Of a stretch of DNA of 64,000 bases, positions 3,102 through 32,685 are shown piece after piece (positions within the stretch are counted from its first letter, which is position 1; every line of letters begins with the position of its first letter). Made by a program: the position numbers and the translations under genes. The DNA lies in the NCBI RefSeq assembly GCF_054482525.1, contig NZ_CM137006.1; one strand, 5' to 3'. The notes below the pieces were generated by a model. The model was not told the DNA's origin and did not search any database. It saw only the letters and a list, made by a program, of their open reading frames with translations.

Positions 3102-3116
3102 ATATAAGGGAAAACG

Positions 3117-3665: not shown

Positions 3666-3690
3666 ATTCAAAAATACAGAGGAATAAGAC

Positions 3691-4812: not shown

Positions 4813-4814
4813 GC

Positions 4815-5780: not shown

Positions 5781-5782
5781 TG

Positions 5783-6262
5783 ATGTTTTTACGTCAGGAA
5801 GACTTTGCCACGGTAGTGCGCTCCACACCGCTTGTCTCTCTCGACTTTATTGTCGAGAACAGTCGCGGCGAGTTTCTGCTTGGCAAAAGAACCAACCGCC
5901 CGGCGCAGGGTTACTGGTTTGTGCCGGGAGGGCGCGTGCAGAAAGACGAAACGCTGGAAGCCGCATTTGAGCGGCTGACGATGGCGGAACTGGGGCTGCG
6001 TCTGCCGATAACAGCAGGCCAGTTTTACGGTGTCTGGCAGCACTTTTATGACGATAACTTCTCCGGCACGGATTTCACCACTCACTATGTGGTGCTCGGT
6101 TTTCGCTTCAGAGTCGCGGAAGAAGAGCTGTTACTGCCGGATGAGCAGCATGACGATTACCGCTGGCTGACGCCGGACGCGTTGCTCGCCAGTGACAATG
6201 TTCACGCTAACAGCCGCGCCTATTTTCTCGCTGAGAAGCGTGCCGGAGTACCCGGATTATGA
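5783..6262 (+). CDS. gmm: GDP-mannose mannosyl hydrolase (Nudix)
   Basis: ORF 5744..6262; tandem ATGs at 5780/5783 abut the fcl stop; Nudix-like region; 159-160 aa. Confidence 0.88.
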
Positions 6263-7482: not shown

Positions 7483-7484
7483 TT

Positions 7485-8921: not shown

Positions 8922-9022
8922 CAGTTGAATAATCAACCGGATTAATTCTCCGGTAAATAACGACAAAAACAAAATTGGCCGTTTCGGTCAGGGCCAACTA
9001 TTGCCTGAAAAAGGGTAACGAC

Positions 9023-10393
9023 ATGAAAAAATTAACCTGCTTTAAAGTCTACGATATTCGCGGGAAATTAGGCGAAGAACTGAATGAAGATATTGCCTGG
9101 CGTATTGGTCGCGCCTATGGCGAATTTCTTAAACCGAAAACCATTGTTTTAGGCGGTGATGTCCGCCTCACCAGCGAAACCTTAAAACTGGCGCTGGCAA
9201 AAGGTTTACAGGATGCGGGCGTCGATGTGCTGGATATTGGCATGTCCGGCACCGAAGAGATCTATTTCGCCACGTTCCATCTCAGCGTGGATGGCGGCAT
9301 TGAAGTTACCGCCAGCCATAACCCGATGGATTACAACGGCATGAAGCTGGTGCGCGAAGGGGCTCGCCCGATCAGCGGCGATACCGGACTGCGCGACGTC
9401 CAGCGTCTGGCAGAAGCCAATGACTTCCCTCCTGTCGATGAAACCAAACGCGGTCGCTATCAGCAAATCAATCTGCGTGACGCTTACGTTGATCACCTGT
9501 TCGGTTATATCAACGTCAAAAACCTCACGCCGCTCAAGCTGGTGATCAACTCCGGGAACGGCGCGGCGGGGCCGGTGGTGGACGCCATTGAAGCCCGCTT
9601 TAAAGCCCTCGGCGCACCCGTGGAATTGATCAAAGTGCACAACACGCCGGACGGGAATTTCCCCAACGGTATTCCTAACCCGCTGCTGCCGGAATGTCGC
9701 GACGACACCCGCAATGCGGTCATCAAACACGGCGCGGATATGGGCATTGCCTTTGATGGCGATTTTGACCGCTGTTTCCTGTTTGACGAAAAAGGGCAGT
9801 TTATCGAGGGCTACTACATTGTTGGCCTGCTGGCAGAAGCGTTCCTCGAAAAAAATCCCGGCGCGAAGATCATCCACGATCCACGTCTCTCCTGGAACAC
9901 CGTTGATGTGGTGACTGCCGCAGGCGGCACCCCGGTAATGTCGAAAACCGGACACGCCTTTATTAAAGAACGTATGCGCAAGGAAGACGCCATCTACGGT
10001 GGCGAAATGAGCGCCCACCATTACTTCCGTGATTTCGCTTACTGCGACAGCGGCATGATCCCGTGGCTGCTGGTCGCCGAACTGGTGTGCCTGAAAGGGA
10101 AAACGCTGGGCGAACTGGTGCGCGACCGGATGGCAGCGTTTCCGGCAAGCGGTGAGATCAACAGCAAACTGGCGCACCCCGTTGAGGCGATTAATCGCGT
10201 CGAACAGCATTTTAGCCGTGAGGCGCTGGCGGTGGATCGCACCGATGGCATCAGCATGACCTTTGCCGACTGGCGCTTTAACCTGCGCTCCTCCAACACC
10301 GAACCGGTGGTGCGGTTGAATGTGGAATCGCGCGGCGATGTACCGCTGATGGAAGCGCGAACGCGAACTCTGCTGACGTTGCTGAACGAGTAA
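9023..10393 (+). CDS. cpsG: Phosphomannomutase (colanic acid copy)
   Basis: ORF 8975..10393; start taken at MKKLTCFK (456 aa); phosphohexomutase active-site TASHNP. Confidence 0.93.
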
Positions 10394-17453: not shown

Positions 17454-18449
17454 ATGAACGATAACGTTTTGCTCATAGGAGCTTCCGGATTCGTAGGAAC
17501 CCGACTACTTGAAACGGCAATTGCTGACTTTAATATCAAGAACCTGGACAAACAGCAGAGCCACTTTTATCCAGAAATCACACAGATTGGCGATGTTCGT
17601 GATCAACAGACACTCGACCAGGCGTTAGCCGGTTTTGACACTGTTGTACTACTGGCAGCGGAACACCGCGATGATGTCAGTCCTACTTCTCTCTATTATG
17701 ATGTCAACGTTCAGGGTACCCGCAATGTACTGGCGGCCATGGAAAAAAATGGCGTTAAAAATATCATCTTTACCAGTTCCGTTGCTGTTTATGGTTTGAA
17801 CAAACACAACCCTGACGAAAACCATCCACACGACCCTTTCAACCACTACGGCAAAAGTAAGTGGCAGGCAGAGGAGGTGCTGCGTGAATGGTATAACAAA
17901 GCACCAACAGAACGTTCATTAACCATCATCCGTCCTACCGTTATCTTCGGTGAACGCAACCGCGGTAACGTCTATAACTTGCTGAAACAGATCGCTGGCG
18001 GCAAGTTTATGATGGTGGGCGCAGGGACTAACTATAAGTCCATGGCTTATGTTGGAAACATTGTTGAGTTTATTAAGTACAAACTGAAGAATGTTGCCGC
18101 AGGTTATGAGGTTTATAACTACGTTGATAAGCCAGACCTGAACATGAACCAGTTGGTTGCTGAAGTTGAACAAAGCCTGAACAAAAAGATCCCTTCTATG
18201 CACTTGCCTTACCCACTAGGAATGCTGGGTGGATATTGCTTTGATATCCTGAGCAAAATTACGGGCAAAAAATACGCTGTCAGCTCTGTGCGCGTGAAAA
18301 AATTCTGCGCAACTACACAGTTTGACGCAACGAAAGTGCATTCTTCAGGTTTTGTGGCACCGTATACGCTGTCGCAAGGTCTGGATCGAACTCTGCAGTA
18401 TGAATTCGTCCATGCCAAAAAAGACGACATAACGTTTGTTTCTGAGTAA
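17454..18449 (+). CDS. gne: NAD-dependent sugar 4-epimerase (Gne-type; UDP-GlcNAc/GalNAc-related epimerase)
   Basis: 331 aa; N-terminal Rossmann GASGFVG; SDR-like YGKSK; located between wcaM and galF, where K-12 as I recall it has no gene but other E. coli lineages carry gne. Confidence 0.75.
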   Translation: MNDNVLLIGASGFVGTRLLETAIADFNIKNLDKQQSHFYPEITQIGDVRDQQTLDQALAGFDTVVLLAAEHRDDVSPTSLYYDVNVQGTRNVLAAMEKNGVKNIIFTSSVAVYGLNKHNPDENHPHDPFNHYGKSKWQAEEVLREWYNKAPTERSLTIIRPTVIFGERNRGNVYNLLKQIAGGKFMMVGAGTNYKSMAYVGNIVEFIKYKLKNVAAGYEVYNYVDKPDLNMNQLVAEVEQSLNKKIPSMHLPYPLGMLGGYCFDILSKITGKKYAVSSVRVKKFCATTQFDATKVHSSGFVAPYTLSQGLDRTLQYEFVHAKKDDITFVSE

Positions 18450-19585: not shown

Positions 19586-19838
19586 TGAAAATCTGACCGG
19601 ATGTAACGGTTGATAAGAAAATTATAACGGCGGTGAGGATTCGTGGGGCTAATTGTACTCATTGCCTCATTCTTTCTTTATACCGTTCTAAATATGAGTA
19701 ACAATAACTTTTCAATAGGCATTTATTGTGGGAGGCTGAGATTTTCTCCATCTCTGAAGCGATTTGGTAAAACGTTCAGAGTTAAGCTTTTCGAACTAAC
19801 CATAACGGTTAATGCTAGTTACAACTAGGACATGCATG

Positions 19839-19877
19839 CAGTACGCTGGTAGCTGTTGAGCCAGGGGCGGTAGCGTG
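19839..19877 (+). promoter_or_regulatory. JUMPstart element with ops site (GGCGGTAGCGTG) for RfaH-dependent antitermination
   Basis: Sequence cagtacgctggtagctgttgagccaggggcggtagcgtg read directly; 39-bp JUMPstart consensus ending in the 12-bp ops motif, ~80 bp upstream of the first O-antigen gene. Confidence 0.85.
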
Positions 19878-19957
19878 AATTAAATGTTTATCCCATATTA
19901 CTTAACAAATTGTAAACTATCGTGCAAAATAAGACTTGTTAAGTACGTAGGCTCGTT

Positions 19958-21193
19958 ATGTTAAAAAACATCATCTATTTATTAAGCGTTCAAGGTGGCA
20001 ATTATATATTTCCATTGGTCACACTGCCTTATCTTGTCAGGATCCTTGAACCTACAGGATACGGGATATATGGGTATAGTTTTGCTGTGGTCCAATATTT
20101 TATATTATTTATTGATTACGGATTTAACTACTCAGCGCCCAAAATCATATCAATATCAAGGGAAAATACTGATTCCATAAGTAAAGTTTTTTGGAATGTA
20201 ACGTTTATCAAAATAATTGCAGCATCTCTTGGTTTGTTAATTATTTATTTAATTTCGGAATTGAATATCATTGATTACCAAATTAAATTTATCATTCTTG
20301 CATACATATCTGTCGTAGGAAATTTAATATATCCAGTATGGTTTTTTCAAGGGCTGGAAAAAATGTTAGGAATAGCGATAAGTATGTTTTCCGCACGCTT
20401 ACTTACACTATGTTTAACATTTTTATTGGTTAAAAGTGAAAAGGATCTTGGTATAGCGATAACAATACAATCATCAATAACAGTTATTGCAGGTATAATA
20501 TCTACATATTTTTTATTTTCTCTTAAAAAAATAATATGGGTACCACCATCCTTATCCAAAATGAAAGAGTTAATTTATGATGGATGGCATTACTTCATTT
20601 CCTCTGCAGCAATAAGCCTTTATACTACTAGTTCAACAATAATATTAGGTGCATTATCAGGAACAACTGCAGTGGGATATTTTATCGCTGCAGATAAAAT
20701 TAGGCTTGCACTACAAGGCGTTATTGGTCCTATAACCCAAGCTGTTTTTCCTAGAGTAACTTATATAATGAAGGATAATCATGACGATGGACTATTATTA
20801 GCCAGGAAAGTGTTTCGATGGCAATTTTCACTGATGTTCGTACTTTCCATATTTCTTTACTTTTTTGCAGACGATATAATTTTAATCATGTATGGAAAAA
20901 CGTATCATGAATCTTTAGAAATACTCAAGGTTTTAGCTTTTACTCCAGCAATAGTTACGGTAAGTAATTATATTGCAATTTTAGTAATGATCCCTATTGG
21001 TATGAAAAAAGAATTTACAAAAATTATTACTACCAGTGGATTAATAGGCCTACTGATAATTACTTATTTGACTAATGAATACTCAGGAGTTGGTACAGCA
21101 ATAGGAGTTATTTCAACTGAGTTTATAATAATGGCGAGATTTTACTTTTTGATTAAGAAAACAAATAAATTAAATAATTTAAATTTATTGTAG
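19958..21193 (+). CDS. wzx: O-antigen flippase Wzx
   Basis: 411 aa, ~12 predicted TM segments, polysaccharide biosynthesis protein family N-terminus; AT-rich; first gene after JUMPstart. Confidence 0.75.
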   Translation: MLKNIIYLLSVQGGNYIFPLVTLPYLVRILEPTGYGIYGYSFAVVQYFILFIDYGFNYSAPKIISISRENTDSISKVFWNVTFIKIIAASLGLLIIYLISELNIIDYQIKFIILAYISVVGNLIYPVWFFQGLEKMLGIAISMFSARLLTLCLTFLLVKSEKDLGIAITIQSSITVIAGIISTYFLFSLKKIIWVPPSLSKMKELIYDGWHYFISSAAISLYTTSSTIILGALSGTTAVGYFIAADKIRLALQGVIGPITQAVFPRVTYIMKDNHDDGLLLARKVFRWQFSLMFVLSIFLYFFADDIILIMYGKTYHESLEILKVLAFTPAIVTVSNYIAILVMIPIGMKKEFTKIITTSGLIGLLIITYLTNEYSGVGTAIGVISTEFIIMARFYFLIKKTNKLNNLNLL

Positions 21194-21201
21194 GGCTAAC
21201 A

Positions 21202-21927
21202 ATGAATAAACCAACTTTAACAATAGTTACCGTTGTGTACAATGGCGAAATGTATATCGAAGATACTATAAAAAGTGTCTTATCACAAAACTGCAATGAT
21301 GACATTGAATATATTATAATTGATGGTGCATCAACGGATAATACTCTAAATATTGTTAATTCTTACAAAAATGAAATTTCATATATCATTTCTGAAAATG
21401 ATAATGGTATATATGATGCAATGAATAAAGGTGTGTTAAAAGCATCTGGAAATTATATAGGATTTATAAACGCTGATGATTTTTATAATAAAGATGTATT
21501 ATGTCAAGTAATAAAAGTAATGAAAGAAAATAAATATGATGTTATTTATGGAAATATGTCTTTGGTAGAGGCTGATAGCTTGGATGTTATTCAGGTCCGG
21601 AGGCCTAAAGACTGGAAACTACATATAGATATGAATTTAAGCCATCCGGCCACATTTATTAGAAAAGATATCCACAGAGAAAATTTATTTAATACTAGCT
21701 ATAAAATTGCTTCTGATTATGATCTTTTGCTAAAATTGAAGAAACAAGGTTATATCTTTCATTATATTGATAAAAATATCTCTTCGATGAGAAATGCCGG
21801 CCTTAGCGCTAAAAATGTAAAATTAGCATTGGAGGAAGCGAGACAAATCCGAAAGAAAAGAAACGGGAAATTATATGCGGCGTTAGCAGATATTTACCTA
21901 TTTATGAGAAAAGTTATAAAAAGATGA
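21202..21927 (+). CDS. Glycosyltransferase family 2 (WcaE-like)
   Basis: 241 aa; motifs IIDGASTDNT and [11 protein letters not shown] shared with WcaE (2355..3101). Confidence 0.8.
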   Translation: MNKPTLTIVTVVYNGEMYIEDTIKSVLSQNCNDDIEYIIIDGASTDNTLNIVNSYKNEISYIISENDNGIYDAMNKGVLKASGNYIGFINADDFYNKDVLCQVIKVMKENKYDVIYGNMSLVEADSLDVIQVRRPKDWKLHIDMNLSHPATFIRKDIHRENLFNTSYKIASDYDLLLKLKKQGYIFHYIDKNISSMRNAGLSAKNVKLALEEARQIRKKRNGKLYAALADIYLFMRKVIKR

Positions 21928-23159
21928 TTAATAGAAACATAAAAATTAGTGCTTCATTTATTTCAATAATTTATTTGCCTTTTGCTTTATTATTAGCAAT
22001 GATTGAAATGATTAATGGGGCCAGATGGAGTGTTTATGTATGTTCATTTATGCTAGGGGTACTAGCATTTTTGTTAATACCTTATGAAAATTGGGATTTG
22101 ACTAGGCATTATGAAACATATTTATATGTTAGTCAAACATCACTAAACAAAGTTTTTGAAAATAGTGACAATAGATATATTACAATAAATACTGTTATTT
22201 ATTTATTTAAATCTTTAGGAATAAAAAAAGAATTTTTACCTTTTTTTTCAACATTTTTATCATATATTTTTTATTTTAATATATATGTTAATCACATTAA
22301 AAAATACAATCCGGAATTATCTCATAGATGTATATATTTATATATTCTAATAAGCGTAATCCCATTTTTTGCTATAGCTAGTTCATTGCGGCAATATCTT
22401 GCATTTAGTATTATGCTTTATATGATCATACAGTATTTCACCAGTGAAAATAATAGGTATAAGTCACAAAAAATTATATTCTCTGCAATTATTTCATGTT
22501 GTATTCATCCCAGCGCAATACTATTGCTAGGTGTTTTTTTTGTTAGCAAATTAATAAGACTTAACAAAACAATATTGTATTTAATAATATTAGTTCTAAT
22601 CCTTAACCATGATGGATTAATATCTTCTTTGCTATTTCAATTGATTAGGCCATTATTGGAAAGCTTAGGTTTTTACTTTCCCGAATATATGGACTCTGTA
22701 ACCATAGGCATAAGCAATAGCTTGCTGAGCACTAATGAATATATCTTGAATAAGATCATATTACCGTCAGTGTTTTTTATTTTTACTTTTATCTATTTAA
22801 TTTTATTTAATAAAAAAATGACGAGGCAAGAGTCACAAATCAAAAATTTTTGCAGTTTACTTCTTTTGCTGATATGCCTTTTATCGTTATCGCCTGATTT
22901 ATTTTATCGATTTTCCATTTTCTGGGTGTTATTATATAGTTATATATTTTTCTCCTACGATATTAATAAAATTAGCAAACTATGTAAGCATCTGATCTTC
23001 TTAATACTCATTACCGCATGTTCAATCATAAATTTGGCACAGGCAAATATGGGTAAAGATATTATTTATGTGTCTTGGTGCGATATATTGTATAAGCCCT
23101 CATTATTCCTATTCAATAAAGAAGTTAAATCAGCAGAATATATAAGAGTGAGTCAATAA
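21924..23159 (+). CDS. wzy: O-antigen polymerase Wzy (putative)
   Basis: 411 aa, very hydrophobic, multiple TM helices, no soluble-enzyme motifs, very AT-rich; typical of Wzy in O-antigen clusters. Confidence 0.6.
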   Translation: MINRNIKISASFISIIYLPFALLLAMIEMINGARWSVYVCSFMLGVLAFLLIPYENWDLTRHYETYLYVSQTSLNKVFENSDNRYITINTVIYLFKSLGIKKEFLPFFSTFLSYIFYFNIYVNHIKKYNPELSHRCIYLYILISVIPFFAIASSLRQYLAFSIMLYMIIQYFTSENNRYKSQKIIFSAIISCCIHPSAILLLGVFFVSKLIRLNKTILYLIILVLILNHDGLISSLLFQLIRPLLESLGFYFPEYMDSVTIGISNSLLSTNEYILNKIILPSVFFIFTFIYLILFNKKMTRQESQIKNFCSLLLLLICLLSLSPDLFYRFSIFWVLLYSYIFFSYDINKISKLCKHLIFLILITACSIINLAQANMGKDIIYVSWCDILYKPSLFLFNKEVKSAEYIRVSQ

Positions 23160-23160
23160 A

Positions 23161-24228
23161 ATGTCCATTGGAGTCTTTAAGCTGTATGAAAATAAAATAG
23201 GTGGCACTGAGAAAGCAGTTGAAAATCTAATTGATATATTAACTAAAAACAGCCTACAAGTGAGATGTTTTTCAGCAATAAACGCACAAGAGATACAAGT
23301 TAGAGAAGATAATCGGAAAACCTACTTATTCCAAGACAATACTGCATATGAAGAAAGCAAATTAAGGTTTTACATTAAATATTTGTTTTTTTTGAGTGCC
23401 AAAAGTAAAGACCTTGAATTAATAATTTCCACGGATATAGCTACATCATCATTATTGTTATTGATTGGTTTTTTTCGGTGTAATAAGAATAAAATTATTT
23501 GCTGGGAACATTATCCATTTGACAAGAATAGTATTTTTTGGAGAAAAGTATTTAAATTTCTTTTGTCTCTTAATAAAAAAGCTGTAGTAGTTTGTAATTC
23601 TCACAAGGAAAAAGATAAGTTTACTTTTTGTAAAAGGGTTGTAATTATACCAAATTCAATCAAAACGCAAAAATATAAGCGCATACATCAAGGAAAAGAA
23701 ACTCTTGATTTGATTTATATTGGTCGGATTGTTAAAGATAAAGGAGTTGAAAGGTTAATTAATGCAGTAATAAATCACCCGTCTACAAAAAAGTATGTTT
23801 TACACATTGTAGGAGGTGGTCAAGAGCTGGAGTATCTCAAATCTAAATATAAGAATAACAACCAAATACACTTTCATGGACCGAGTTTAAACACAGATGT
23901 TTTTTTGGCAAAAAGTGATGTTTTTGTATCCGGTTCATACTTTGAATGTTTTCCTGTTACAATACTTGAAGCTATGTCCTACGGATTACCTGTAATTTCA
24001 ATGGATATATCTGGAGGGACAAGTAGCGTGATTTCTTCATCGGGTGGCGGATTTGTGTGTCAATCTCAAATTGAATTTCAGGAAAAACTAACTTACTTTG
24101 AAGATAATGTTAAACGAACCGAACACGGAAATGCAGGATTCCTATTCGTGAATAGACATTATACAGAAGAAATAGTTAGTGCTCAGTGGATGAGTTTGAT
24201 CAATCGAGCCAATAGTCAAGAAAATTAA
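23161..24228 (+). CDS. Glycosyltransferase family 4 (GT1 fold)
   Basis: 355 aa; C-terminal motif FPVTILEAMSYGLPVIS typical of retaining GT4 enzymes. Confidence 0.75.
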   Translation: MSIGVFKLYENKIGGTEKAVENLIDILTKNSLQVRCFSAINAQEIQVREDNRKTYLFQDNTAYEESKLRFYIKYLFFLSAKSKDLELIISTDIATSSLLLLIGFFRCNKNKIICWEHYPFDKNSIFWRKVFKFLLSLNKKAVVVCNSHKEKDKFTFCKRVVIIPNSIKTQKYKRIHQGKETLDLIYIGRIVKDKGVERLINAVINHPSTKKYVLHIVGGGQELEYLKSKYKNNNQIHFHGPSLNTDVFLAKSDVFVSGSYFECFPVTILEAMSYGLPVISMDISGGTSSVISSSGGGFVCQSQIEFQEKLTYFEDNVKRTEHGNAGFLFVNRHYTEEIVSAQWMSLINRANSQEN

Positions 24229-24248
24229 GGTATTGGAGCTATTAAAGT

Positions 24249-25265
24249 ATGAGCATACTTGTGACTGGTGGGGCTGGCTATATTGGCTCACATGCTATAT
24301 TAACTTTATTGCAAAATGGATATGATGTTATATCGCTAGATAATTATTGCAATTCCTCTCCAAAATCTCTAGAACGAGTAGAGGAAATTTGCTTATCTAA
24401 GATAAAAAAATTACGTGGTGATATTAGAGATAGACATATATTAAAAAATATCTTTTCAAAATATAATGTTTCTACTGTAATGCATTTTGCGGGTTTAAAA
24501 TCTGTTAACGAGTCCATTAAAAAACCATTAGAATATTACGACACAAATCTTTTGGGGACTCTAATATTACTTGATGAAATGCAGAAAGCGAATATTTCTA
24601 ATCTAATTTTTAGTTCGTCTGCTACTGTCTATGGCAATCCTCATTATGTTCCAATATCTGAAAAACACCCTGTCGGTGAGGTGATCAATCCGTACGGTCG
24701 TTCAAAGTTTATGGTGGAACATATATTGCGTGATTTTTGTAACGCGAATAGCGACGCAAATATCACAATACTAAGATATTTTAATCCTGTAGGTGCTCAT
24801 AAGACTGGATTAATTGGAGAAGATCCTTTAGGAACTCCTAATAACCTGTTTCCCTATGTTGCGCAAGTCGCAATTGGAAAATTACCCTATCTAAATGTTT
24901 TTGGTAATAAATATATGACAAAAGATGGAACAGGTGTAAGAGATTATATCCATGTAGTCGATTTAGTTGAGGGGCATCTTGCCGCTTTAAAAAATCTCAA
25001 TAGAAACCGGGGGCTTAAAGTTTTTAATTTAGGCACTGGTCAAGGTTATAGTGTGTTAGATATCATCGACGCTTTTAAACTGGAAACAGGACGCGATATA
25101 CCTTTCCGTATCGTTTCTGAGCGAAATGGAGATGTGGCTGAATGTTGGTCCGATCCTTCCTTAGCAAACGAGCAGCTAAGTTGGGTTGCTAAAAGGACTC
25201 TTAATAATATGGTGGAAGATGCATGGAGATGGCAAACAATGAATCCAAATGGATATAAAGAGTAA
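24249..25265 (+). CDS. UDP-glucose/UDP-galactose 4-epimerase (GalE family) encoded inside the O-antigen cluster
   Basis: 338 aa; TGGAGYIGSH Rossmann motif, SSSATVYG and YGRSK catalytic motifs of GalE-type epimerases. Confidence 0.85.
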   Translation: MSILVTGGAGYIGSHAILTLLQNGYDVISLDNYCNSSPKSLERVEEICLSKIKKLRGDIRDRHILKNIFSKYNVSTVMHFAGLKSVNESIKKPLEYYDTNLLGTLILLDEMQKANISNLIFSSSATVYGNPHYVPISEKHPVGEVINPYGRSKFMVEHILRDFCNANSDANITILRYFNPVGAHKTGLIGEDPLGTPNNLFPYVAQVAIGKLPYLNVFGNKYMTKDGTGVRDYIHVVDLVEGHLAALKNLNRNRGLKVFNLGTGQGYSVLDIIDAFKLETGRDIPFRIVSERNGDVAECWSDPSLANEQLSWVAKRTLNNMVEDAWRWQTMNPNGYKE

Positions 25266-25333
25266 ATTGAAACAATTATAATCATCCATTTCATTGCTTA
25301 CTGTATTGTTATCTATATATATGAAAACAAAAA

Positions 25334-26341
25334 ATGAAAATATTATATGATGGGATTGTGAAAAGTTTACAATCATATGGTGGTATCACTGTATACTTTG
25401 AAGAAATCATTAAGAGATTAAAAAATGACGAATACAAATTCATTCAATTTAATGATAAAAATGAAAATCACAATGATGATCTCCATCGGCCATGCCGGTT
25501 TTTAGAACGATATAGATGTTTTGAAGCATTAAAAAGTGATTCAGATTACAGTATATTTCATTCTACATATTATCGGGTTCCGAAAGATGGGGAATATGCG
25601 GTTGTGACCACGGTCCACGATTTCACATATGAATTGTATATGAAAGGACTTCGGCGCAATGTTCATAGCTTACAAAAAAGATGGGCTGTGAAACATAGCG
25701 ATGCAATCATTTGTGTCTCTAATAATACAGCCAAGGATTTAATTAATTTCTTTAAGGTTGATGAAAAAAAGATACATGTTATTCATAATGGTGTATCGGA
25801 AGATTATAGACACTTAAATCTAGAAAAAGAAAATTTTGTGCTTTTTGTCGGTGCTCGTTCAGGATATAAAAATTTTGAGCTTGCAGTTAAAGCCGTTTCT
25901 AAACTTTTTGATACTAATCTTAAAATAGTCGGCGGAGGTGGTTTAAATAAAGCAGAAATGAAGTTACTATCTGAATATCTTCCAGAAAGATTCCAGTACT
26001 TAGGGAAGGTATCAAATGAAAAACTAAATATATTATATAATTCGGCTTATTGCTTAATCTATCCTTCAGAATATGAAGGGTTTGGAATTCCCTTGCTTGA
26101 GGCTATGCGAACTGGCTGTCCTGTGATAGCCGTAAATAGATCATCAATACCCGAGGTTGTGGGGGATAGTGCGATTTTAGTCGAAGAAGTATCAATTGAA
26201 AGTTTATTCTCAGCTTTATTAAGTGTAGAAGCTAACGCTAATGAATTAAAAAATAAAGGATTAGCGCAATCTAATAAATTTTCATGGGGGAAGTGTTTCT
26301 CCGAAACATATAATCTATATAAATCACTATCTAAGTTTTGA
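25334..26341 (+). CDS. Glycosyltransferase family 4
   Basis: 335 aa; [21 protein letters not shown] motif (E-x7-E). Confidence 0.78.
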
Positions 26342-26351
26342 GAGGTTATTT

Positions 26352-27473
26352 ATGTGTAAGAAAGCTTTAATTACAGGAATTACCGGGCAAGATGGTTCCT
26401 ACTTGGCAGAATTTCTGCTTAAAAAAGGCTATGAGGTTCATGGAATAAAACGTCGATCTTCCTTGTTTAATACTGACCGTATTGATCATATATATCAAGA
26501 CCCACACCATCGTAATTTAAAATTACAACTTCATTATGGTGATTTAACAGATACTTCTAATTTGACTCGGATATTATCTGAAGTTCAACCTGATGAAGTT
26601 TATAATCTTGGCGCAATGAGTCACGTAGCTGTTTCCTTCGAATCCCCAGAATATACAGCTGATGTTGATGCTATAGGTACTTTACGATTATTGGAAGCTA
26701 TTCGTTTTTTGGGATTAGAAAAAAAAACCCGATTTTATCAGGCGTCAACCTCTGAATTGTATGGATTAGTTCAGGAAGTTCCACAAAAAGAGACAACGCC
26801 GTTCTATCCTCGTTCACCTTATGCCGTAGCTAAACTGTATGCATATTGGATCACTGTAAACTATCGTGAGTCTTATGGAATGTATGCATGTAACGGTATT
26901 TTGTTCAATCATGAATCCCCACGTCGTGGGGAAACGTTTGTAACACGTAAAATCACACGTGCTATAGCTAATATATCGCAGGGAATAGAAAAATGCTTAT
27001 ATCTTGGCAACATGGATTCTTTACGCGATTGGGGGCATGCGAAAGATTATGTTCGTATGCAATGGATGATGCTTCAACAAGACCAGCCAGAAGACTTTGT
27101 TATTGCCACCGGCAAACAAATATCTGTACGTGAATTTGTCCGTATGTCTGCTAAAGAAGTTGGACTTGAACTTGAGTTTTCCGGTACTGGTGTTGATGAG
27201 ATTGCATTTGTTGTAAATAAAACATCAGATTGCGCCGTTGGTGTTAATATTGGTGATGTTATTGTTCGCGTTGACCCTCGTTATTTTCGACCAGCAGAAG
27301 TTGAAACTCTTCTTGGTGATCCAACAAAAGCAAAAAATGTCTTGGGTTGGGAGCCAGAGATTACAGTTGAAGAAATGTGTGCAGAAATGGTGGCTAGTGA
27401 TTTAGAAAAAGCTAAACAGCATGCACTTCTTAAAAGCCATGGTTTTGACGTGGCAGTCTCTTTGGAGCGTTAA
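26352..27473 (+). CDS. gmd: GDP-mannose 4,6-dehydratase (O-antigen copy, low GC)
   Basis: 373 aa; protein highly similar to colanic acid Gmd (3691..4812) but with divergent, AT-richer codon usage. Confidence 0.93.
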
Positions 27474-27476
27474 AGT

Positions 27477-28442
27477 ATGACCAAGAAGCGAATTTTTGTG
27501 GCTGGACATCGTGGGATGGTTGGTTCTGCTATTTGTCGTCAATTATTAGCACGTAATGATGTTGAGTTAATTGTCAAAACTCACAAAGAACTCGATTTGA
27601 CAGTTCAAAAGGATGTTGAATGTTTTTTTGAGCAAGAGAGAATAGATCAGGTTTACCTTGCAGCAGCAAAAGTAGGAGGAATTCATGCTAATAACACTTT
27701 TCCAGCTGAATTTATTTATCAGAACCTTCTTATTGAAAGCAATATTATTCACTCATCTTACAAAGCGGGCATAAAGAAACTATTATTCTTAGGGTCAAGT
27801 TGTATCTATCCAAAGTTTGCAGAACAGCCAATGAAAGAATCTGCACTTTTGACGGGAACTCTTGAGCCTACTAATGAGCCTTATGCTATTTCCAAAATAG
27901 CAGGTATAAAGCTATGTGAATCTTATAATCGCCAATATGGATGTGATTATCGCAGTGTAATGCCTACTAACTTATATGGTATGAATGATAATTTTCATCC
28001 CAATAACTCACATGTAATTCCAGCGCTTATGCGGCGTTTTCATGAAGCAAAGGAACTTGGTTTAAATGAAGTGGTTGTCTGGGGAACGGGAACTCCAAAA
28101 CGCGAGTTTTTATATGTTGATGATATGGCCGCTGCATCAGTATATGTGATGGAGCTTGATGATGAAATTTATAAAAAAAATACTCAACCAATGTTATCTC
28201 ATATTAACGTAGGTACTGGTGTTGATTGTTCCATACGTGAAATGGCAGAAACAATGGCTTTAGTTGTTGGCTATGATGGAAAAATTGTTTTTGATATAAC
28301 AAAACCAGATGGTTCGCCTCGTAAACTTATGGATGTTACACGCCTTGAGAATTTGGGTTGGAAATATCGTTATAATTTAAAACAAGGACTAGAATTAACA
28401 TATAAATGGTTTATAAATAATCTTGACTCATTTAGGAGTTAA
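27477..28442 (+). CDS. fcl: GDP-L-fucose synthase (O-antigen copy)
   Basis: 321 aa; paralogue of 4815..5780 with the same motifs. Confidence 0.93.
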
Positions 28443-28444
28443 TA

Positions 28445-28900
28445 TTGAACAAGAGATTAGAAACAGAGTTATTTAAATCAATAGTTGAACATACTCCACT
28501 AATCTCGATAGACCTTATTATAAGAAACGAAGATGGTAAGGCGCTGCTTGGTCAGCGCCTTAATCGTCCAGCACAAAATTATTGGTTTGTGCCGGGGGGA
28601 CGGATTCTTAAAGATGAGTCTTTCGAGAACGCATTCAAAAGAGTTACTTTAGAAGAATTGGGTGTTCAAATTAGCATTAATGAAGCAAAATTTCTTGGGA
28701 TTTATGAACATTTCTACAGCGACAATTTTTCTGGGACTTGTTTTTCAACTCATTATGTCGTACACGGATATGAGATTAGTTTGATGCCACATCAAATTAA
28801 CTATCCAACACTACAACATAGTACTTACAATTGGTTCGATATAGCCGAATTGTTAGCTAATTCCTCAGTTCATCAGTACACAAAAAATTATTTTAAGTGA
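28445..28900 (+). CDS. gmm: GDP-mannose mannosyl hydrolase (O-antigen copy; apparent TTG start)
   Basis: 151 aa; aligns with colanic acid Gmm (NRPAQ.YWFVPGG); no in-frame ATG near the start, TTG at 28445 just after the fcl stop. Confidence 0.8.
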   Translation: MNKRLETELFKSIVEHTPLISIDLIIRNEDGKALLGQRLNRPAQNYWFVPGGRILKDESFENAFKRVTLEELGVQISINEAKFLGIYEHFYSDNFSGTCFSTHYVVHGYEISLMPHQINYPTLQHSTYNWFDIAELLANSSVHQYTKNYFK

Positions 28901-28911
28901 AGGTTATTTAT

Positions 28912-30297
28912 ATGCTACTTCCTGTTGTAATGGCCGGTGGTTCTGGAACTAGATTGTGGCCACTTTCTCGAACACTATATCCGAAGCAATTCCTATCGTT
29001 AACTAGTCGTTTGACTATGCTACAAGAGACCTTAAGAAGGCTTGAAGGGGTTGAACATCGTCCTGCTCTGGTTATTTGTAATGAAGTTCATCGTTTTATC
29101 GTTGCAGAACAGATGCGTAATGTAAATTTAGCGAATAGTGGCATTTTACTAGAGCCGATAGGTCGTAATACAGCCCCCGCAGTTGCGCTTGCTGCTCTTA
29201 AAGCGATTTCATCAGGTGAGGATCCAATACTGCTTGTACTAGCAGCCGATCATGAAATACAAGACCAAAAGCGCTTTATATCGTCAATATTGGCTGCAAA
29301 AGAATTTGCAGAGGAAGGTAAGCTGGTAACTTTTGGTATTGTGCCAACCAAACCCGAAACTGGATATGGCTACATAAAAACCGGAGAAAATTTAAATGAA
29401 TATGGTTTTAAAGTTTCTGCTTTTGTTGAAAAGCCTGAGCTAGATGTGGCCAAAAAATATCTTGAAGATGGAGATTATCTTTGGAATAGTGGAATATTCA
29501 TGTTTAGGGCTTCTGTGTTTATTGATGAGTTGAATAAATTTAGACCAGACATACTAAAAATATGCCAACAAGCATTGAAGTCCTCTACACAAGATCTTGA
29601 TTTTATCCGTATAGATAATGACTCATTTAGTTGTTGCCCTGAAGAATCCATTGATTACGCTGTTATGGAGAAAACAACAGAGGCTGTGGTAGTTCCATTA
29701 AATGCCCACTGGAGCGATGTTGGTTCTTGGTCTGCATTATGGGAAATTAGCAGAAAAGATAAAAGTGGAAATGCAATTAGAGGAGATGTATTAATTCATG
29801 ATTCTTCTGACAGTTATCTTTACTCACAACATAGATTAATTGGTGTAGTAGGAGTTAAAGATTTAGTAGTTGTTGAAACTAAAGATGCTATTCTCGTTGC
29901 GCATAAAGATAAAGTTCAACAGGTAAAAAATATTGTAGAAAAACTTAAAGTTAATAACCGTACGGAATATCTGCAGCATCGTGAAATATTTAGGCCATGG
30001 GGCAGTCATGACTCTATAGCGGAAGGATCTCGATTTGAGGTTAAACATGTCGTTATTCATCCTGGACATAAAACTGCTAAACAGATTCATTACCATCGTA
30101 CTGAGCATTGGATTGTTGTTTCTGGAACAGCAAAAGTCCATTATGAAGATGAAATATTTCTTGTTTCTGAAAATGAATCAACTTATATACCAATAGGTGT
30201 ACCTCATTTTATTGAGAATCCAGGAAAGATCCCTTTGGAGATTATTGAGGTACGTTCAGGTGTCTACTTGGATGAAGATGATGTTGTTAGAATCTAA
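28912..30297 (+). CDS. manC: Mannose-1-phosphate guanylyltransferase (O-antigen copy)
   Basis: ORF 28897..30297; start chosen at [16 protein letters not shown] (ATG 28912) by alignment with CpsB; low-GC paralogue. Confidence 0.9.
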   Translation: MLLPVVMAGGSGTRLWPLSRTLYPKQFLSLTSRLTMLQETLRRLEGVEHRPALVICNEVHRFIVAEQMRNVNLANSGILLEPIGRNTAPAVALAALKAISSGEDPILLVLAADHEIQDQKRFISSILAAKEFAEEGKLVTFGIVPTKPETGYGYIKTGENLNEYGFKVSAFVEKPELDVAKKYLEDGDYLWNSGIFMFRASVFIDELNKFRPDILKICQQALKSSTQDLDFIRIDNDSFSCCPEESIDYAVMEKTTEAVVVPLNAHWSDVGSWSALWEISRKDKSGNAIRGDVLIHDSSDSYLYSQHRLIGVVGVKDLVVVETKDAILVAHKDKVQQVKNIVEKLKVNNRTEYLQHREIFRPWGSHDSIAEGSRFEVKHVVIHPGHKTAKQIHYHRTEHWIVVSGTAKVHYEDEIFLVSENESTYIPIGVPHFIENPGKIPLEIIEVRSGVYLDEDDVVRI

Positions 30298-30368
30298 AAT
30301 GATGCTGGATACTAATGCAACATTATTATTCGTAATGCTGTACTGACGTTATTTAATTATGATTATTA

Positions 30369-31127
30369 TTGGATGTTAAAATGAAAGTCAGTATTATTAC
30401 AGTGACTTATAATAGTGAAAAGACTTTAAGGGATACTTTAGAGTCAATAGAGTTGCAAACCTATAAAGATATAGAGTATATAATTATTGATGGTGGTTCT
30501 ACAGATAATACGTTAAAACTAATTAACGAAGTATCAACAAGAGTAACCAAATGTCTATCAGAAAGCGATAACGGTATCTATGATGCTTTAAATAAAGGTA
30601 TAAATTTATCTACGGGAGATATTATTGGATTCGTTCATTCTGATGACCTTTTAGCAAGACCTGATATTATTGAAACTATTGTAAGCCGTTTCCATGAGAC
30701 AAAAGCGGATGTTGTATACGGTGATTTGGTTTTTTTCGAAAAAAACCAAACTGATATAATCAAACGATACTGGCGTAGTGGTCCTTTTAAACGTTCTAAG
30801 CTATCATTAGGCTGGGCACCACCGCATCCATCTTTCTATATGAGGAGGGAATTATATAAAGACGATGGATATTTTGATTTATCCTATAGGATTGCTGCAG
30901 ACTATGATCAGATGGTCAGGATTTTGAAACGTGATGATATTAAAGTTATTTATGTTCCTCAAGTATTTGTAAAGATGAGATTGGGTGGGGAAAGTACCAG
31001 AATTGATAACGCGATATCAAGTACAAAGGAAATTGTAGAAGTTATGAAAAACCATAATGTAAATTGGAAAATTGCTATCATTATCAGAAAAATCTCAAAA
31101 CTAATGCAATTGTTTGCGCATAAATAA
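30369..31127 (+). CDS. Glycosyltransferase family 2 (WcaE-like), inserted between manC and manB
   Basis: 252 aa; IIDGGSTDNT and DNGIYDALNKG motifs; start may be the internal Met at 30381. Confidence 0.8.
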   Translation: MDVKMKVSIITVTYNSEKTLRDTLESIELQTYKDIEYIIIDGGSTDNTLKLINEVSTRVTKCLSESDNGIYDALNKGINLSTGDIIGFVHSDDLLARPDIIETIVSRFHETKADVVYGDLVFFEKNQTDIIKRYWRSGPFKRSKLSLGWAPPHPSFYMRRELYKDDGYFDLSYRIAADYDQMVRILKRDDIKVIYVPQVFVKMRLGGESTRIDNAISSTKEIVEVMKNHNVNWKIAIIIRKISKLMQLFAHK

Positions 31128-31151
31128 TTTTATTATTGGTAAGGTTTTTAT

Positions 31152-32522
31152 ATGAAAAAATTAACCTGCTTTAAAGCCTATGATATTCGCGGGAAATTAG
31201 GCGAAGAACTGAATGAAGATATTGCGTGGCGCATTGGTCGCGCCTATGGCGAATTTCTCAAACCGAAAACCATTGTGTTAGGCGGTGACGTCCGCCTCAC
31301 CAGCGAAACCTTAAAACTGGCGCTGGCGAGAGGTTTACAGGATGCGGGCGTCGATGTGCTGGATATCGGCATGTCCGGCACCGAAGAGATCTATTTCGCC
31401 ACGTTCCATCTCGGCGTGGATGGCGGCATTGAAGTTACCGCCAGCCATAATCCGATGGATTATAACGGCATGAAGCTGGTTCGCGAGGGGGCTCGCCCGA
31501 TCAGCGGAGATACCGGACTGCGCGACGTCCAGCGTCTGGCTGAAGCCAACGACTTTCCTCCCGTCGATGAAACCAAACGCGGTCGCTATCAGCAAATCAA
31601 CCTGCGTGACGCTTACGTTGATCACCTGTTCGGTTATATCAATGTCAAAAACCTCACGCCGCTCAAGCTGGTGATCAACTCCGGGAACGGCGCAGCGGGT
31701 CCGGTGGTGGACGCTATCGAAGCCCGCTTTAAAGCCCTCGGCGCACCTGTGGAATTGATCAAAGTGCACAACACGCCGGACGGCAATTTCCCCAACGGTA
31801 TTCCTAACCCGCTGCTGCCGGAATGTCGCGACGACACCCGCAATGCGGTCATTAAACACGGCGCGGATATGGGCATTGCCTTTGATGGCGATTTTGACCG
31901 CTGTTTCCTGTTTGACGAAAAAGGGCAGTTTATCGAGGGCTACTACATTGTCGGCCTGCTGGCAGAAGCGTTCCTCGAAAAAAATCCCGGCGCGAAGATC
32001 ATCCACGATCCACGTCTCTCCTGGAATACCGTTGATGTGGTGACCGCCGCGGGCGGCACACCGGTGATGTCGAAAACCGGACACGCCTTTATTAAAGAAC
32101 GTATGCGCAAGGAAGACGCCATCTACGGTGGCGAAATGAGCGCCCACCACTATTTCCGTGATTTCGCTTACTGCGACAGCGGCATGATCCCGTGGCTGCT
32201 GGTCGCCGAACTGGTGTGTCTGAAAGGAAAAACGCTGGGCGAACTGGTGCGCGACCGGATGGCAGCGTTTCCGGCAAGCGGTGAGATCAACAGCAAACTG
32301 GCGCAACCCGCTGAGGCGATTAATCGCGTCGAACAGCATTTTAGCCGTGAGGCGCTGGCGGTGGATCGCACCGATGGCATCAGCATGACCTTTGCCGACT
32401 GGCGCTTTAACCTGCGCTCCTCCAACACCGAACCGGTGGTGCGCCTGAATGTGGAATCGCGCGGTGATGTGCCGCTGATGGAAGAAAAGACAAAACTTAT
32501 CCTTGCGTTATTGAACAAGTAA
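31152..32522 (+). CDS. manB: Phosphomannomutase (O-antigen copy; mosaic, near-identical to cpsG over most of its length)
   Basis: 456 aa; spot comparisons of 60-bp blocks against 9023..10393 show 0-3 mismatches each; only the last ~40-50 bp diverge. Confidence 0.93.
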
Positions 32523-32685
32523 TTCAGTAATTTCATATAAATAAGTTTTAAAAGACGGAAAAGATGAGATATTCAGTGTGGTATAGCAAAGGTACTGCTA
32601 TTCACCATCTCTATGAGTGAGTTAACATCTATACCACATTTAAGCCGCACACTCGGCGGTGAACACCCCCTGACAGGAGTATACA

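Follow-up and report, generated by a model that had tools for sequence, protein, structure and literature searches.

The DNA analysed here, a 64-kb stretch referred to below as the window, contains the colanic acid gene cluster, the O11 O-antigen gene cluster and the his operon. Over the 13 kb compared, the O-antigen region is 100% identical to the chromosome of E. coli PCN033, a strain of serogroup O11 whose O-antigen cluster matches that of O11 G1207 (HQ388393). The wzx and wzy genes of the window carry the label 'O11 family' in the PCN033 annotation. [quoted passage not shown]

The cluster is of the Wzx/Wzy type. It encodes four glycosyltransferases and a GDP-L-fucose pathway of its own, and a gnu gene lies upstream. 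The order of its open reading frames is wzx, GT2, wzy, GT4-like, galE-like, GT4, gmd, fcl, gmm, manC, GT2, manB. The two family 2 (GT2) genes are here called GT2-a and GT2-b. The genes discussed are:

2355..3101, + strand: wcaE of the colanic acid cluster (TIGR04009, 511.8 bits)
17454..18449, + strand: gnu, UndPP-GlcNAc 4-epimerase, upstream of galF (annotation; role from Yersinia gnu)
19958..21193, + strand: wzx, O11 family flippase (annotation, domain search)
21202..21927, + strand: GT2-a, 241 aa, ATG start, between wzx and wzy (Pfam PF00535)
21924..23159, + strand: wzy, O11 family polymerase, EpsG family (annotation, domain search)
23161..24228, + strand: GT4-like glycosyltransferase, 355 aa, counterpart of Salmonella wdaE
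24249..25265, + strand: in-cluster GalE-like 4-epimerase, galE/gne (annotation, domain search)
25334..26341, + strand: GT4, 335 aa, directly upstream of gmd, counterpart of Salmonella wdaF
26352..30297, + strand: GDP-L-fucose supply genes, the whole block gmd-fcl-gmm-manC
26352..27473, + strand: gmd (annotation)
27477..28442, + strand: fcl (annotation)
28445..28900, + strand: gmm (annotation)
28912..30297, + strand: manC (annotated start; the longest open reading frame runs from GTG 28897)
30381..31127, + strand: GT2-b, 248 aa, between manC and manB (Pfam PF00535)
31152..32522, + strand: manB (annotated cpsG)

The position of gnu upstream of galF implies an O unit initiated with GalNAc. The manB gene has a GC content of 55%, compared with 33% in the remainder of the O-antigen cluster.

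Gene calls and family membership

The first-pass annotation proposed that the O-antigen cluster contains two GT2 genes resembling wcaE. Both open reading frames are present, and both match Pfam PF00535 (Glycos_transf_2), with E = 8e-29 for GT2-a and E = 1e-29 for GT2-b. The second gene had been placed at 30369..31127. The reading frame is correct but the start is not: TTG 30369 is an in-frame alternative farther upstream, which is probably not used, because the RefSeq annotation of the identical PCN033 and all homologues begin at ATG 30381 (MKVSIIT..., 248 aa).

The resemblance to WcaE is genuine but more distant than the name suggests. Both proteins contain the two motifs described below, and are 29–31% identical to WcaE over about 190–220 residues (BLASTP: 31% and E = 4e-29 for GT2-a; 29% and E = 5e-16 for GT2-b). 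The best NCBIfam match of both is TIGR04009 (wcaE), with scores of 100.1 bits for GT2-a and 65.5 bits for GT2-b. These are far under the equivalog cut-off of 369.2 bits, while the true WcaE of the window scores 511.8 bits. Orthology with WcaE is therefore rejected, and the proteins are related to it at the level of paralogues.

A clade of GT2 L-fucosyltransferases has recently been defined, which includes WrtF, WbdO of E. coli O157, Bf4306 of B. fragilis, WcaE of colanic acid and GtfD of M. avium. WrtF is an α-(1→4)-L-fucosyltransferase with a GT-A fold from Rhizobium tropici CIAT 899, for which both structure and activity have been reported (Forrester et al., PNAS 2025, PMC12595478). The same paper counts WcaE and O157 WbdO as GT2 fucosyltransferases; in its account, the activity of WbdO and Bf4306 was shown biochemically, and the evidence for WcaE is less direct and comes from a knockout (PMC12595478). 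WbdO is described as the GT2 α-1,4-L-fucosyltransferase of E. coli O157 by Melamed and Brockhausen (2023). On the basis of sequence, GT2-a and GT2-b are members of this clade, themselves uncharacterised.

GT2-a and GT2-b are 36% identical to each other (BLASTP, E = 4e-44). In a neighbour-joining tree they form two separate branches (bootstrap 93% and 100%), apart from the WcaE-type branch. Bootstrap replicates put WrtF on the GT2-a/b side in 37% of cases and on the side of WcaE in 20%. Because this support is poor, the position of WrtF in the tree is not used as evidence, and the argument that proven fucosyltransferases bracket the O11 proteins (WrtF lying beside the GT2-b branch) has been dropped.

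Motifs, fold and signature residues

A six-frame scan of the 64 kb gave exactly three matches to D.GIYDA[MLI]NKG, in WcaE (2553..2585), GT2-a (21400..21432) and GT2-b (30567..30599). The pattern [IV][IV]DG[GA]S.D.T is present in the same three genes, so that the sharing of both motifs seen at first pass is confirmed. In the O11 proteins the motifs, placed by alignment, are:

21316..21345, + strand: GT2-a motif IIDGASTDNT, nucleotide-binding β2 region
21400..21432, + strand: GT2-a motif D-x-GIYDA-x-NKG, equivalent to WrtF D66-R-G68-I69-Y70-D-A-I73-N-K-G
30483..30512, + strand: GT2-b motif IIDGGSTDNT
30567..30599, + strand: GT2-b motif DNGIYDALNKG

The GT2-b motif DNGIYDALNKG is invariant across the 23 family members aligned, and D-x-G-I-Y does not vary in either of the two alignments of relatives (23 and 25 sequences). 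It had also been noted that the cluster lacks a GT11-type α-1,2-fucosyltransferase motif. The motif H.RR.D[YF] of these enzymes (WbsJ, WbwK and FutC type) occurs in none of the six frames of the 64-kb window, and no open reading frame of the O-antigen cluster is a GT11 gene, every one being assigned to another family. A GT11 or other classical fucosyltransferase in the window is therefore rejected.

For both proteins the closest solved structure by sequence is WrtF (E about 1e-24 and 1e-22; PDB 9OMH-9OMN). Structure prediction, suggested at first pass as a check, agrees with this. The AlphaFold models (pLDDT 94.6 for GT2-a and 90.3 for GT2-b) both have a GT-A fold and a short C-terminal helical region. 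When they were searched against the PDB using Foldseek, the top 15 matches of each model were all WrtF chains (E = 7e-21 to 2e-17), with TM 0.72–0.82 (0.77–0.82 for GT2-a) over about 225–235 aligned columns. WrtF is of the same size class and shares this layout of GT-A domain and short helical C-terminus. WbdN of O157, whose donor is UDP-Glc, lacks the DNGIYDA(M/L)NKG motif by alignment, and has D-D in the β2 region where WrtF and the O11 proteins have D-G. Searches by family, sequence and fold found no assignment of either protein to a GT2 subfamily with a donor other than fucose.

The motif can be mapped onto the structure of WrtF. Here Asp66 hydrogen-bonds to N1 and N2 of guanine, with Gly68 and Ile69 stacked against the base; the fucose is contacted by Ile69, Tyr70 and Ile73, and Asn143 touches its axial O4; the variants N143A and F191A retain 5% and 10% activity respectively (PMC12595478). 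The binding mode of GDP-fucose that is competent for turnover was left open by the authors (PMC12595478). Residues D66, G68, I69, Y70, H142 and D167 (WrtF numbering) are retained in both O11 proteins, and by alignment are not found in WbdN. The guanine-binding Asp is seen as D67-N-G-I-Y in GT2-a and D63-N-G-I-Y in GT2-b, and the equivalents of His142 and Asp167 are H148 and D172 in GT2-a, and H149 and D174 in GT2-b. At position 73 GT2-a has Met, the same as WcaE and WbdO.

Two of the five signature residues differ, in both O11 proteins, from those of the five reference fucosyltransferases. Asn143 is not conserved, being replaced by Pro in both proteins and in all close relatives; by alignment, WcaE and WbdO have Gln at this position. 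Nor is Phe/Tyr191 conserved: both have Met (...MR.GG), as does WbdN. The 'DxD' site reads NADD in GT2-a and HSDD in GT2-b, which is neither GADD nor N(A/S)GD, although as in the fucosyltransferase clade its first position is not Asp. The WrtF authors mention, without data, an NXDD class for related GT2 fucosyltransferases (PMC12595478). Compared with WrtF itself, which has GADD, the O11 proteins are just 25–31% identical. WrtF belongs to a polymerising O-polysaccharide pathway and uses a glucose acceptor, and its acceptor-binding C-terminal region is divergent from theirs.

WbdO provides a second comparison. It is a 248-aa GT2 protein with the same type of D-x-GIYDA-x-NKG motif, and the O-antigen cluster that encodes it includes a gmd and fcl of its own but no GT11 gene. 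However, it is only 30–31% identical to the O11 proteins and lies in the WcaE-type branch (NAGD, His-Gln, Tyr191).

The conserved guanine-binding Asp argues for a GDP-sugar donor, yet the O11 cluster also makes GDP-mannose. Pro143 and Met191 are compatible with fucose, because there are GT2-b relatives with both substitutions that are tightly linked to GDP-fucose genes. The first-pass suggestion that both proteins are candidates for the fucosyl or an adjacent transfer step is thus supported by WrtF as the best match in both sequence and fold, by the location of the motif at the guanine and fucose contacts and, for GT2-b, by the GDP-fucose gene module described next. It was a well-founded guess, and not a surprising one.

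GT2-b and the manC-GT2-manB module

GT2-b lies between manC and manB, downstream of gmd and fcl, and a WbyK-like GT4 precedes gmd. This is the placement of wbyL in Yersinia. Full-length comparison gives 53% identity between GT2-b and the Yersinia protein in the WbyL position (P0210, 247 aa), which is found in the context GT4-gmd-fcl-manC-GT2-manB-wzz (loci L082/L083). The GT4 at 25334..26341 and its positional counterpart in Yersinia, the GT4 WbyK, share 52.5% identity, again at full length. A review of Yersinia gives the order gmd, fcl, manC, wbyL, manB, and predicts WbyL to be an α-L-Fuc-(1→3)-GlcNAc transferase and WbyK an α-D-Man-(1→3)-L-Fuc transferase. WbyQ, which occurs in Yersinia together with gnu, is predicted to be an α-L-Fuc-(1→3)-GalNAc transferase. 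The order GT4, gmd, fcl, manC, GT2, manB is therefore common to Yersinia and O11, with the difference that in O11 gmm is inserted between fcl and manC. O11 has gnu, as do the Yersinia WbyQ modules, and the sequence comparison of GT2-b is with WbyL alone. The functions of WbyL and WbyQ, proteins of the Yersinia pseudotuberculosis complex, are themselves predictions.

The manC-GT2-manB module recurs in Citrobacter freundii and in four further E. coli types, O36 and O41 among them. More widely, among 80 relatives of GT2-b in other genomes, 14 have gmd, fcl, gmm, manC or manB as an immediate neighbour (≤102 bp away), and the arrangements are of several kinds. The taxa represented by these 14 include Yersinia, Vibrio, Aeromonas, Legionella, Nitrospirae, Campylobacteraceae, Paracoccaceae and a CPR bacterium, and all 14 have the same motif set. 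For 62 of the 80 there is no gmd or fcl within 10 kb. The branch has at least 582 genome matches, in many phyla.

On the basis of these comparisons, GT2-b is most likely a WbyL-like enzyme, a predicted α-L-fucosyltransferase acting on the first lipid-linked HexNAc, and we have good confidence that the sugar it transfers is L-fucose. It could be argued that its position between manC and manB, which are both GDP-mannose genes, instead reflects GDP-mannose, and that it is a GDP-mannose-dependent β-mannosyltransferase or a user of some other GDP-6-deoxyhexose. The guanine-binding Asp is blind to which GDP-sugar is bound, and the residue in place of the fucose-O4-contacting Asn143 is Pro. However, relatives elsewhere abut gmd or fcl and not manC: one is placed between gmd and fcl (L006), six are upstream of gmd (L022, L023, L033, L043, L050 and L075) and one is upstream of fcl (L052). 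In addition, the positions that in WrtF lie against the ring of fucose (I69, Y70 and a hydrophobic residue at 73) are invariant in the GT2-b family, and in Yersinia a Fuc-(1→3)-HexNAc linkage is assigned, by comparison, to WbyL, and to WbyQ with gnu. We regard this alternative reading of GT2-b as improbable.

A further explanation is that neither GT2 transfers fucose, which would be added as β-L-fucose by a GT4-type enzyme, with the GT2s adding β-D-hexoses. Assignments across the O11 cluster are predictions, and the GT4 at 25334..26341 directly adjoins gmd; but its similarity to the Yersinia α-D-Man-(1→3)-L-Fuc enzyme suggests that it acts on fucose and is not the transferase for it, and both GT2s are nearest to proven fucosyltransferases. 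GT4 enzymes are retaining, so that fucose transferred by them would be the rare β-L- and not the usual α-L-fucose. This explanation is very improbable, and it is very likely that at least one of GT2-a and GT2-b is the O11 fucosyltransferase.

GT2-a and the assembly of the O unit

GT2-a belongs to the same clade as GT2-b, with a less certain donor. It is 68% identical to its closest homologue in Salmonella enterica (P0002), a glycosyltransferase represented by fragments from serovar Hvittingfoss (O16). GT2-b is 63% identical to its closest Salmonella homologue (P0139), which is nearly identical to the published O39 WdaG sequence. The Salmonella O16 cluster has the same gene order as O11 (wzx, wdaD, wzy, wdaE, epimerase, wdaF, gmd, fcl, gmm, manC, wdaG, manB), in a different species and with diverged sequences; the relationship of E. 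coli O11 to Salmonella O16 is the topic of Li et al. 2011 (PMID 21205000). GT2-a is the counterpart of O16 wdaD, a name matched by gene order only, and GT2-b that of O16/O39 wdaG. The Salmonella pangenome supplements contain the gene names wdaD–wdaG and no assignments of reactions or linkages.

GT2-a is probably a GDP-sugar-dependent inverting transferase with a late role in building the O unit; the sugar that it adds may be a second α-L-fucose or a different one. That it transfers L-fucose is close to evenly balanced, leaning slightly against. If it does not, GT2-b would be the sole fucosyltransferase, and GT2-a an inverting GT2 that adds a different last or side-branch sugar, either β-D-Man from GDP-mannose or β-D-Gal, GalNAc or Glc. 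We treat this as a serious possibility, though one we would not at present favour. Other donors are on hand, because the cluster encodes GDP-mannose synthesis and a GalE-like epimerase. The gene for GT2-a sits between wzx and wzy, away from gmd, fcl and manC; and the pangenome supplement gives wdaD for Salmonella O16 only, while wdaF and wdaG are common to O16 and O39. The Pro and Met at positions 143 and 191 point the same way, except that the same substitutions occur in the GT2-b relatives tightly linked to GDP-fucose genes, which leaves room for fucose as the donor of GT2-a.

The gene neighbourhoods of GT2-a relatives can be read in both directions. GDP-fucose pathway genes are present in the clusters of 7 of the 9 contexts examined (gmd and fcl in six; gmd alone, at the locus edge, in L088), in favour of fucose. 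Neither gmd nor fcl lies within 10 kb of the relatives in L087 and L093 (the latter from Francisella), and L087 holds the nearest non-enterobacterial relative (55% identical). The test is confounded, since most clusters with a GT2-a relative also carry a GT2-b-like gene. Also in favour of fucose, GT2-a retains D66, G68, I69, Y70 and the Met at 73 of WcaE and WbdO, has the NxDD variant, and has WrtF as its best fold match (TM up to 0.82).

That both proteins are α-L-fucosyltransferases is a tentative reading, to which we give rather less than even weight. They would then represent two uncharacterised and very widespread branches that bind GDP-fucose in a mode unlike that of WrtF, because Asn143 and Phe191 are missing and the 'DxD' site is NADD or HSDD.

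The comparisons establish the identity of the genes, their family and fold, the placement of the motif on the WrtF structure and a conserved neighbourhood, and from these we infer a donor, acceptor, linkage and order of action for the O11 enzymes. GT2-b would transfer fucose from GDP-β-L-fucose to O3 of the sugar first linked to the lipid (UndPP-GalNAc or UndPP-GlcNAc); it is placed at this step because the same is predicted for the 53%-identical WbyL, and for WbyQ on GalNAc. The WbyK-like GT4 at 25334..26341 would next add an α-D-hexose, probably mannose, to O3 of that fucose. GT2-a, with the same guanine-binding and fucose-contact residues, would act late, as an inverting transferase dependent on a GDP-sugar. 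We consider the explanation as a whole, namely that both proteins belong to the inverting GT2 L-fucosyltransferase clade and that GT2-b is a fucosyltransferase, to be reasonably likely.

These findings do not overturn current understanding, and the O11 cluster itself is already published. They do provide a testable order of O-unit assembly for O11, and candidate enzymes for making fucosylated glycans chemoenzymatically. A productive donor-binding mode that is not captured by the WrtF structures might be revealed with the help of the NADD and HSDD variants. There is also a gain for annotation: thousands of database entries described as 'glycosyltransferase family 2 protein' carry D-x-G-I-Y-D-A-x-N-K-G, and those that lie inside a manC-GT2-manB module may provisionally be read as GDP-fucose-dependent transferases. 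On the matter of names, it is worth adding that the gene for WbdO is called wcaE in the Sakai annotation.

The O11 locus and its two family 2 glycosyltransferases

The chromosome of E. coli PCN033 is 100% identical to positions 19600..32600 of the window, and at least 80% of this region is present in 65 complete E. coli genomes. PCN033 belongs to serogroup O11, and its O-antigen cluster matches that of the O11 strain G1207 (GenBank HQ388393); the O11 cluster was published with that of Salmonella enterica O16 (Li et al., 2011, PMID 21205000). The RefSeq gene order in PCN033 is gnu, galF, wzx, GT2, wzy, glycosyltransferase, galE, GT4, gmd, fcl, gmm, manC, GT2, manB (cpsG), gnd, ugd, with wzx labelled "O11 family flippase" and wzy "O11 family polymerase". 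The colanic acid cluster lies upstream (wcaE at 2355..3101), and wzz and the his operon lie downstream. The GC content of the O-antigen cluster is 33%, against about 50–53% in the flanks. The genes discussed here are:

21202..21927, + strand: GT2-a, family 2 glycosyltransferase of 241 residues, between wzx and wzy
30381..31127, + strand: GT2-b, family 2 glycosyltransferase of 248 residues, between manC and manB
31152..32522: manB, 55% GC against 33% across the rest of the cluster (19958..31127)

The manB protein is 98% identical to its counterpart in another E. coli O type (locus L084), and the gene carries the annotation of colanic acid cpsG; a recombination junction seems to lie here, at the cluster's 3' end. 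Long antisense ORFs over manB (31335..32339 and 32168..32536) are probably high-GC by-products.

Both GT2 reading frames picked out by the first-pass annotation exist, the start of GT2-b being moved from a TTG at 30369 to the annotated ATG at 30381. All 22 aligned relatives have an N-terminus matching this ATG (MK(V/I)(S/T)IIT in 21, one shorter), which together with the annotation indicates that the four residues from the TTG are probably not translated. Both proteins match PF00535 strongly, and are 36% identical to each other (BLASTP, E = 4e-44). Against the WcaE of the window, GT2-a shows 31% identity (E = 4e-29) and GT2-b 29% (E = 5e-16). The two motifs said to be shared with WcaE, [IV][IV]DG[GA]S.D.T and D.GIYDA[MLI]NKG, were indeed found, each at exactly three sites in six frames of the window: WcaE, GT2-a and GT2-b. 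The description "WcaE-like" holds at the level of a shared subfamily but not as orthology, which is ruled out by the scores against the WcaE equivalog model TIGR04009 (100.1 bits for GT2-a and 65.5 for GT2-b, cut-off 369.2). The reported lack of a GT11 motif was borne out, with no H.RR.D[YF] in six frames of the 64-kb window.

Structural match to WrtF and departures from its clade

For both proteins the best sequence match in the PDB is a 279-residue "Glycosyltransferase" (entries 9OMH–9OMN; E about 1e-24 for GT2-b and 1e-22 for GT2-a, over about 210 residues), which a text search on the entry codes identifies as the Rhizobium tropici protein WrtF, described as "a GT-A fold fucosyltransferase". 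The structure prediction proposed as a check gave the same answer. AlphaFold models were confident (pLDDT 90.3 for GT2-b, 94.6 for GT2-a), and in Foldseek the top 15 PDB matches to each were all WrtF chains, outranking chondroitin polymerase, SpsA, TarP/TarS and others (GT2-b: E = 7.5e-20, TM 0.72–0.76; GT2-a: E = 6.9e-21, TM 0.77–0.82, rmsd 2.2 Å over 233 columns).

WrtF transfers L-fucose from GDP-β-L-fucose onto glucose in an α-(1→4) linkage (Forrester et al., 2025, PMC12595478). Its Asp66 hydrogen bonds to guanine N1 and the C2 amine, which is also bound by the Val39 carbonyl; Gly68 and Ile69 stack on the guanine, and Ile69, Tyr70 and Ile73 pack on the fucose ring and its C6 methyl (PMC12595478). 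In the alignment, WrtF E-P-D66-R-G68-I69-Y70-D-A-I73-N-K-G corresponds to [13 protein letters not shown] in GT2-a and E-S-D-N-G-I-Y-D-A-L-N-K-G in GT2-b, and V38-V39-D-G-G-S corresponds to I-I-D-G-(A/G)-S. In a proven GT2 fucosyltransferase, therefore, the two motifs are the parts that bind the nucleotide and contact the fucose. WbdN, a GT2 of the fucose-containing O157 cluster, has instead N-L-G-V-A and D-D at the two sites. The donor of WbdN is UDP-glucose.

Four further GT2 fucosyltransferases are named in the WrtF paper, namely Bf4306, O157 WbdO, WcaE and M. avium GtfD; the evidence is direct and biochemical for the first two and less direct for the others (PMC12595478). WbdO, which carries the gene name wcaE in the Sakai annotation, is 35% identical to WcaE and 30–31% to the O11 proteins. 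Asp66, His142, Asn143, Asp167 and Phe191 (Phe or Tyr) are conserved in each of these five proteins, and the "DxD" position is GADD or N(A/S)GD (PMC12595478). By alignment, GT2-a and GT2-b retain Asp66, His142 and Asp167, but in both, Pro replaces Asn143 and Met replaces Phe191, so that two defining residues differ; the "DxD" position is NADD in GT2-a and HSDD in GT2-b. In WrtF, N143A keeps 5% activity and F191A 10% (PMC12595478). Judged by motifs, clade membership of the O11 proteins is incomplete. A rough tree places the relatives of GT2-a and of GT2-b in separate groups (93% and 100% bootstrap), distinct from the WcaE/WbdO-type group, with poor support for the placement of WrtF among them.

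The window contains two complete GDP-L-fucose pathways (gmd, fcl/wcaG, gmm, manC, manB), one in the colanic acid cluster (3691..10393) with WcaE, and one of far lower GC in the O-antigen cluster (26352..32522) with GT2-a and GT2-b. Four E. coli manC-GT2-manB clusters also have a second clade member: L084 (6368..7117), L085 (2698..3435), L095 (O41, 5421..6170) and L096 (O36, 2698..3507). These are of WcaE/WbdO type and not GT2-a type: most have N(A/S)GD at the "DxD" position, they carry His-Gln, and in three of the four residue 191 is Phe/Tyr. A pair of clade members in one fucose cluster thus looks like a recurrent feature. In L096 (strain E06), gmd is split by an IS5-like element of the ISKpn26 family (5821..8144), wzy is frameshifted (3518..4774) and wzzB has an internal stop; this O-antigen cluster is probably inactivated.

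GT2-b and the GDP-fucose genes

The GT2-b family is very tight (246–250 residues, 66 invariant columns): its members in Enterobacterales, Vibrionaceae, Acinetobacter and Marinomonas share more than 50% identity. The module gmd-fcl-gmm-manC-GT2(248 aa)-manB is found also in E. coli O36 and O41, two further E. coli types and Citrobacter freundii. A scan using one genome per species gave at least 582 relatives, the best 80 of which were examined for neighbours. In 14 of these 80 the gene adjoins gmd, fcl, gmm, manC or manB, with gaps of 2–102 bp, and in 18 one of these genes lies within the locus examined, which spans up to 10 kb on either side. The arrangements vary (after manC, between gmd and fcl, before gmd, before fcl), and the 14 range from Yersinia, Vibrio, Aeromonas and Legionella to Nitrospirae, Campylobacteraceae, Paracoccaceae and a Paceibacterota genome. 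For adjacency that recurs in such varied arrangements there is hardly another explanation than functional coupling to the synthesis of GDP-fucose. Since all 14 have the motif set D.GIYDA, (H/N)(S/A)DD, H-P and MR.GG, Pro143 and Met191 are compatible with this coupling.

Yersinia protein P0210 (Y. mollaretii according to its source) is encoded in a locus that reads GT4, gmd, fcl, manC, GT2, manB, wzz. A review of Yersinia pseudotuberculosis O-antigens gives gmd, fcl, manC, wbyL, manB for Y. mollaretii and serotype O:1b, and predicts that WbyL forms α-L-Fuc-(1→3)-D-GlcNAc and WbyK α-D-Man-(1→3)-L-Fuc; where the first sugar is GalNAc, wbyQ and gnu replace wbyL. GT2-b is 53% identical to WbyL, itself of predicted function, and the GT4 that immediately precedes gmd in O11 (25334..26341) shares 52.5% full-length identity with the GT4 in the WbyK position. 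O11 also carries gnu.

A second small GT2 in three distant clusters, about 250 residues long (L087, 16788..17552; L091, 13890..14642; L092, 15083..15826), loosely GT2-b-like and clearly so only in L087 (35% identical), adjoins the gene for the initiating phosphoglycosyl transferase (Bac_transf or Glycos_transf_4), which fits action on the first lipid-linked sugar. A GT2-annotated gene fragment on a 93.6-kb E. coli plasmid (NZ_CP048012.1, 12207..12460; match H45) has 68.5% DNA identity to the 5' third of GT2-b.

GT2-a and the proposed O unit

The closest Salmonella enterica homologue of GT2-a is 68% identical, and related fragments come from serovar Hvittingfoss (O16). In the O16 cluster the genes run wzx, wdaD, wzy, wdaE, epimerase, wdaF, gmd, fcl, gmm, manC, wdaG, manB, with wdaD at the GT2-a position; wdaF and wdaG occur also in Salmonella O39. 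Of nine contexts examined for GT2-a, gmd and/or fcl are present in seven (O11, Salmonella O16, C. freundii L086, Vibrio owensii L088, L090, L091 and L092), and two lack both (L087 and Francisella L093). L090, a 14-kb metagenomic contig (Logan SRR19733623), has gmd, fcl and relatives of all four O11 transferases and of Wzy in the O11 order (50%, 33%, 44%, 41% and 40% identity), together with genes for a CMP-activated sugar (HMGL-like, HAD, CTP_transf_3). The L087 cluster resembles L090, and within 10 kb there is neither gmd nor fcl.

A GT2-b-like gene is usually present in these clusters too, so the association with gmd and fcl does not isolate the GT2-a donor. In GT2-a every guanine and fucose contact residue is preserved, position 73 being Met as in WcaE and WbdO, and on sequence grounds this favours a GDP-sugar. 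GDP-fucose (giving α-L-Fuc) or GDP-mannose (giving β-D-Man) are possible donors, and a UDP-sugar is still conceivable.

We propose that WecA would make UndPP-GlcNAc, which Gnu would convert to UndPP-GalNAc. GT2-b would then add α-L-fucose from GDP-β-L-fucose to O3 of the first sugar, and the WbyK-like GT4 an α-D-hexose, probably mannose, to O3 of that fucose. The last two residues would come from the GT4-like enzyme at 23161..24228 and GT2-a, before flipping by Wzx and polymerisation by Wzy. GT4 enzymes are retaining, and an α-L-fucoside thus needs one of the inverting GT2s. The original suggestion, that the two GT2s are candidates for transfer of fucose or an adjacent sugar, is supported by the WrtF match, the motif mapping, the neighbourhood of GT2-b and the absence of GT11.

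This is an ordinary finding that would not surprise a specialist. The O11 cluster has been published and many sequenced genomes carry it, and GT2 fucosyltransferases are an established kind (WcaE in 2019, WbdO in 2023, WrtF in 2025). The O11 proteins are uncharacterised members of this kind, on branches without a biochemically studied representative. They are of modest interest for their NxDD and HSDD donor-site variants; the WrtF authors suggest that NXDD enzymes may show the productive GDP-fucose binding mode (PMC12595478).

Elsewhere in the window, the PCN033 annotation places a yefM-yoeB toxin-antitoxin pair (44328..44830) between the his operon leader and yeeZ. Three tRNA-Asn genes are present (57859..57934, 60268..60343 and 62092..62167), and the tyrosine-type integrase gene directly after the third (62329..63591) suggests a genomic island at an asn tRNA just past the window end.
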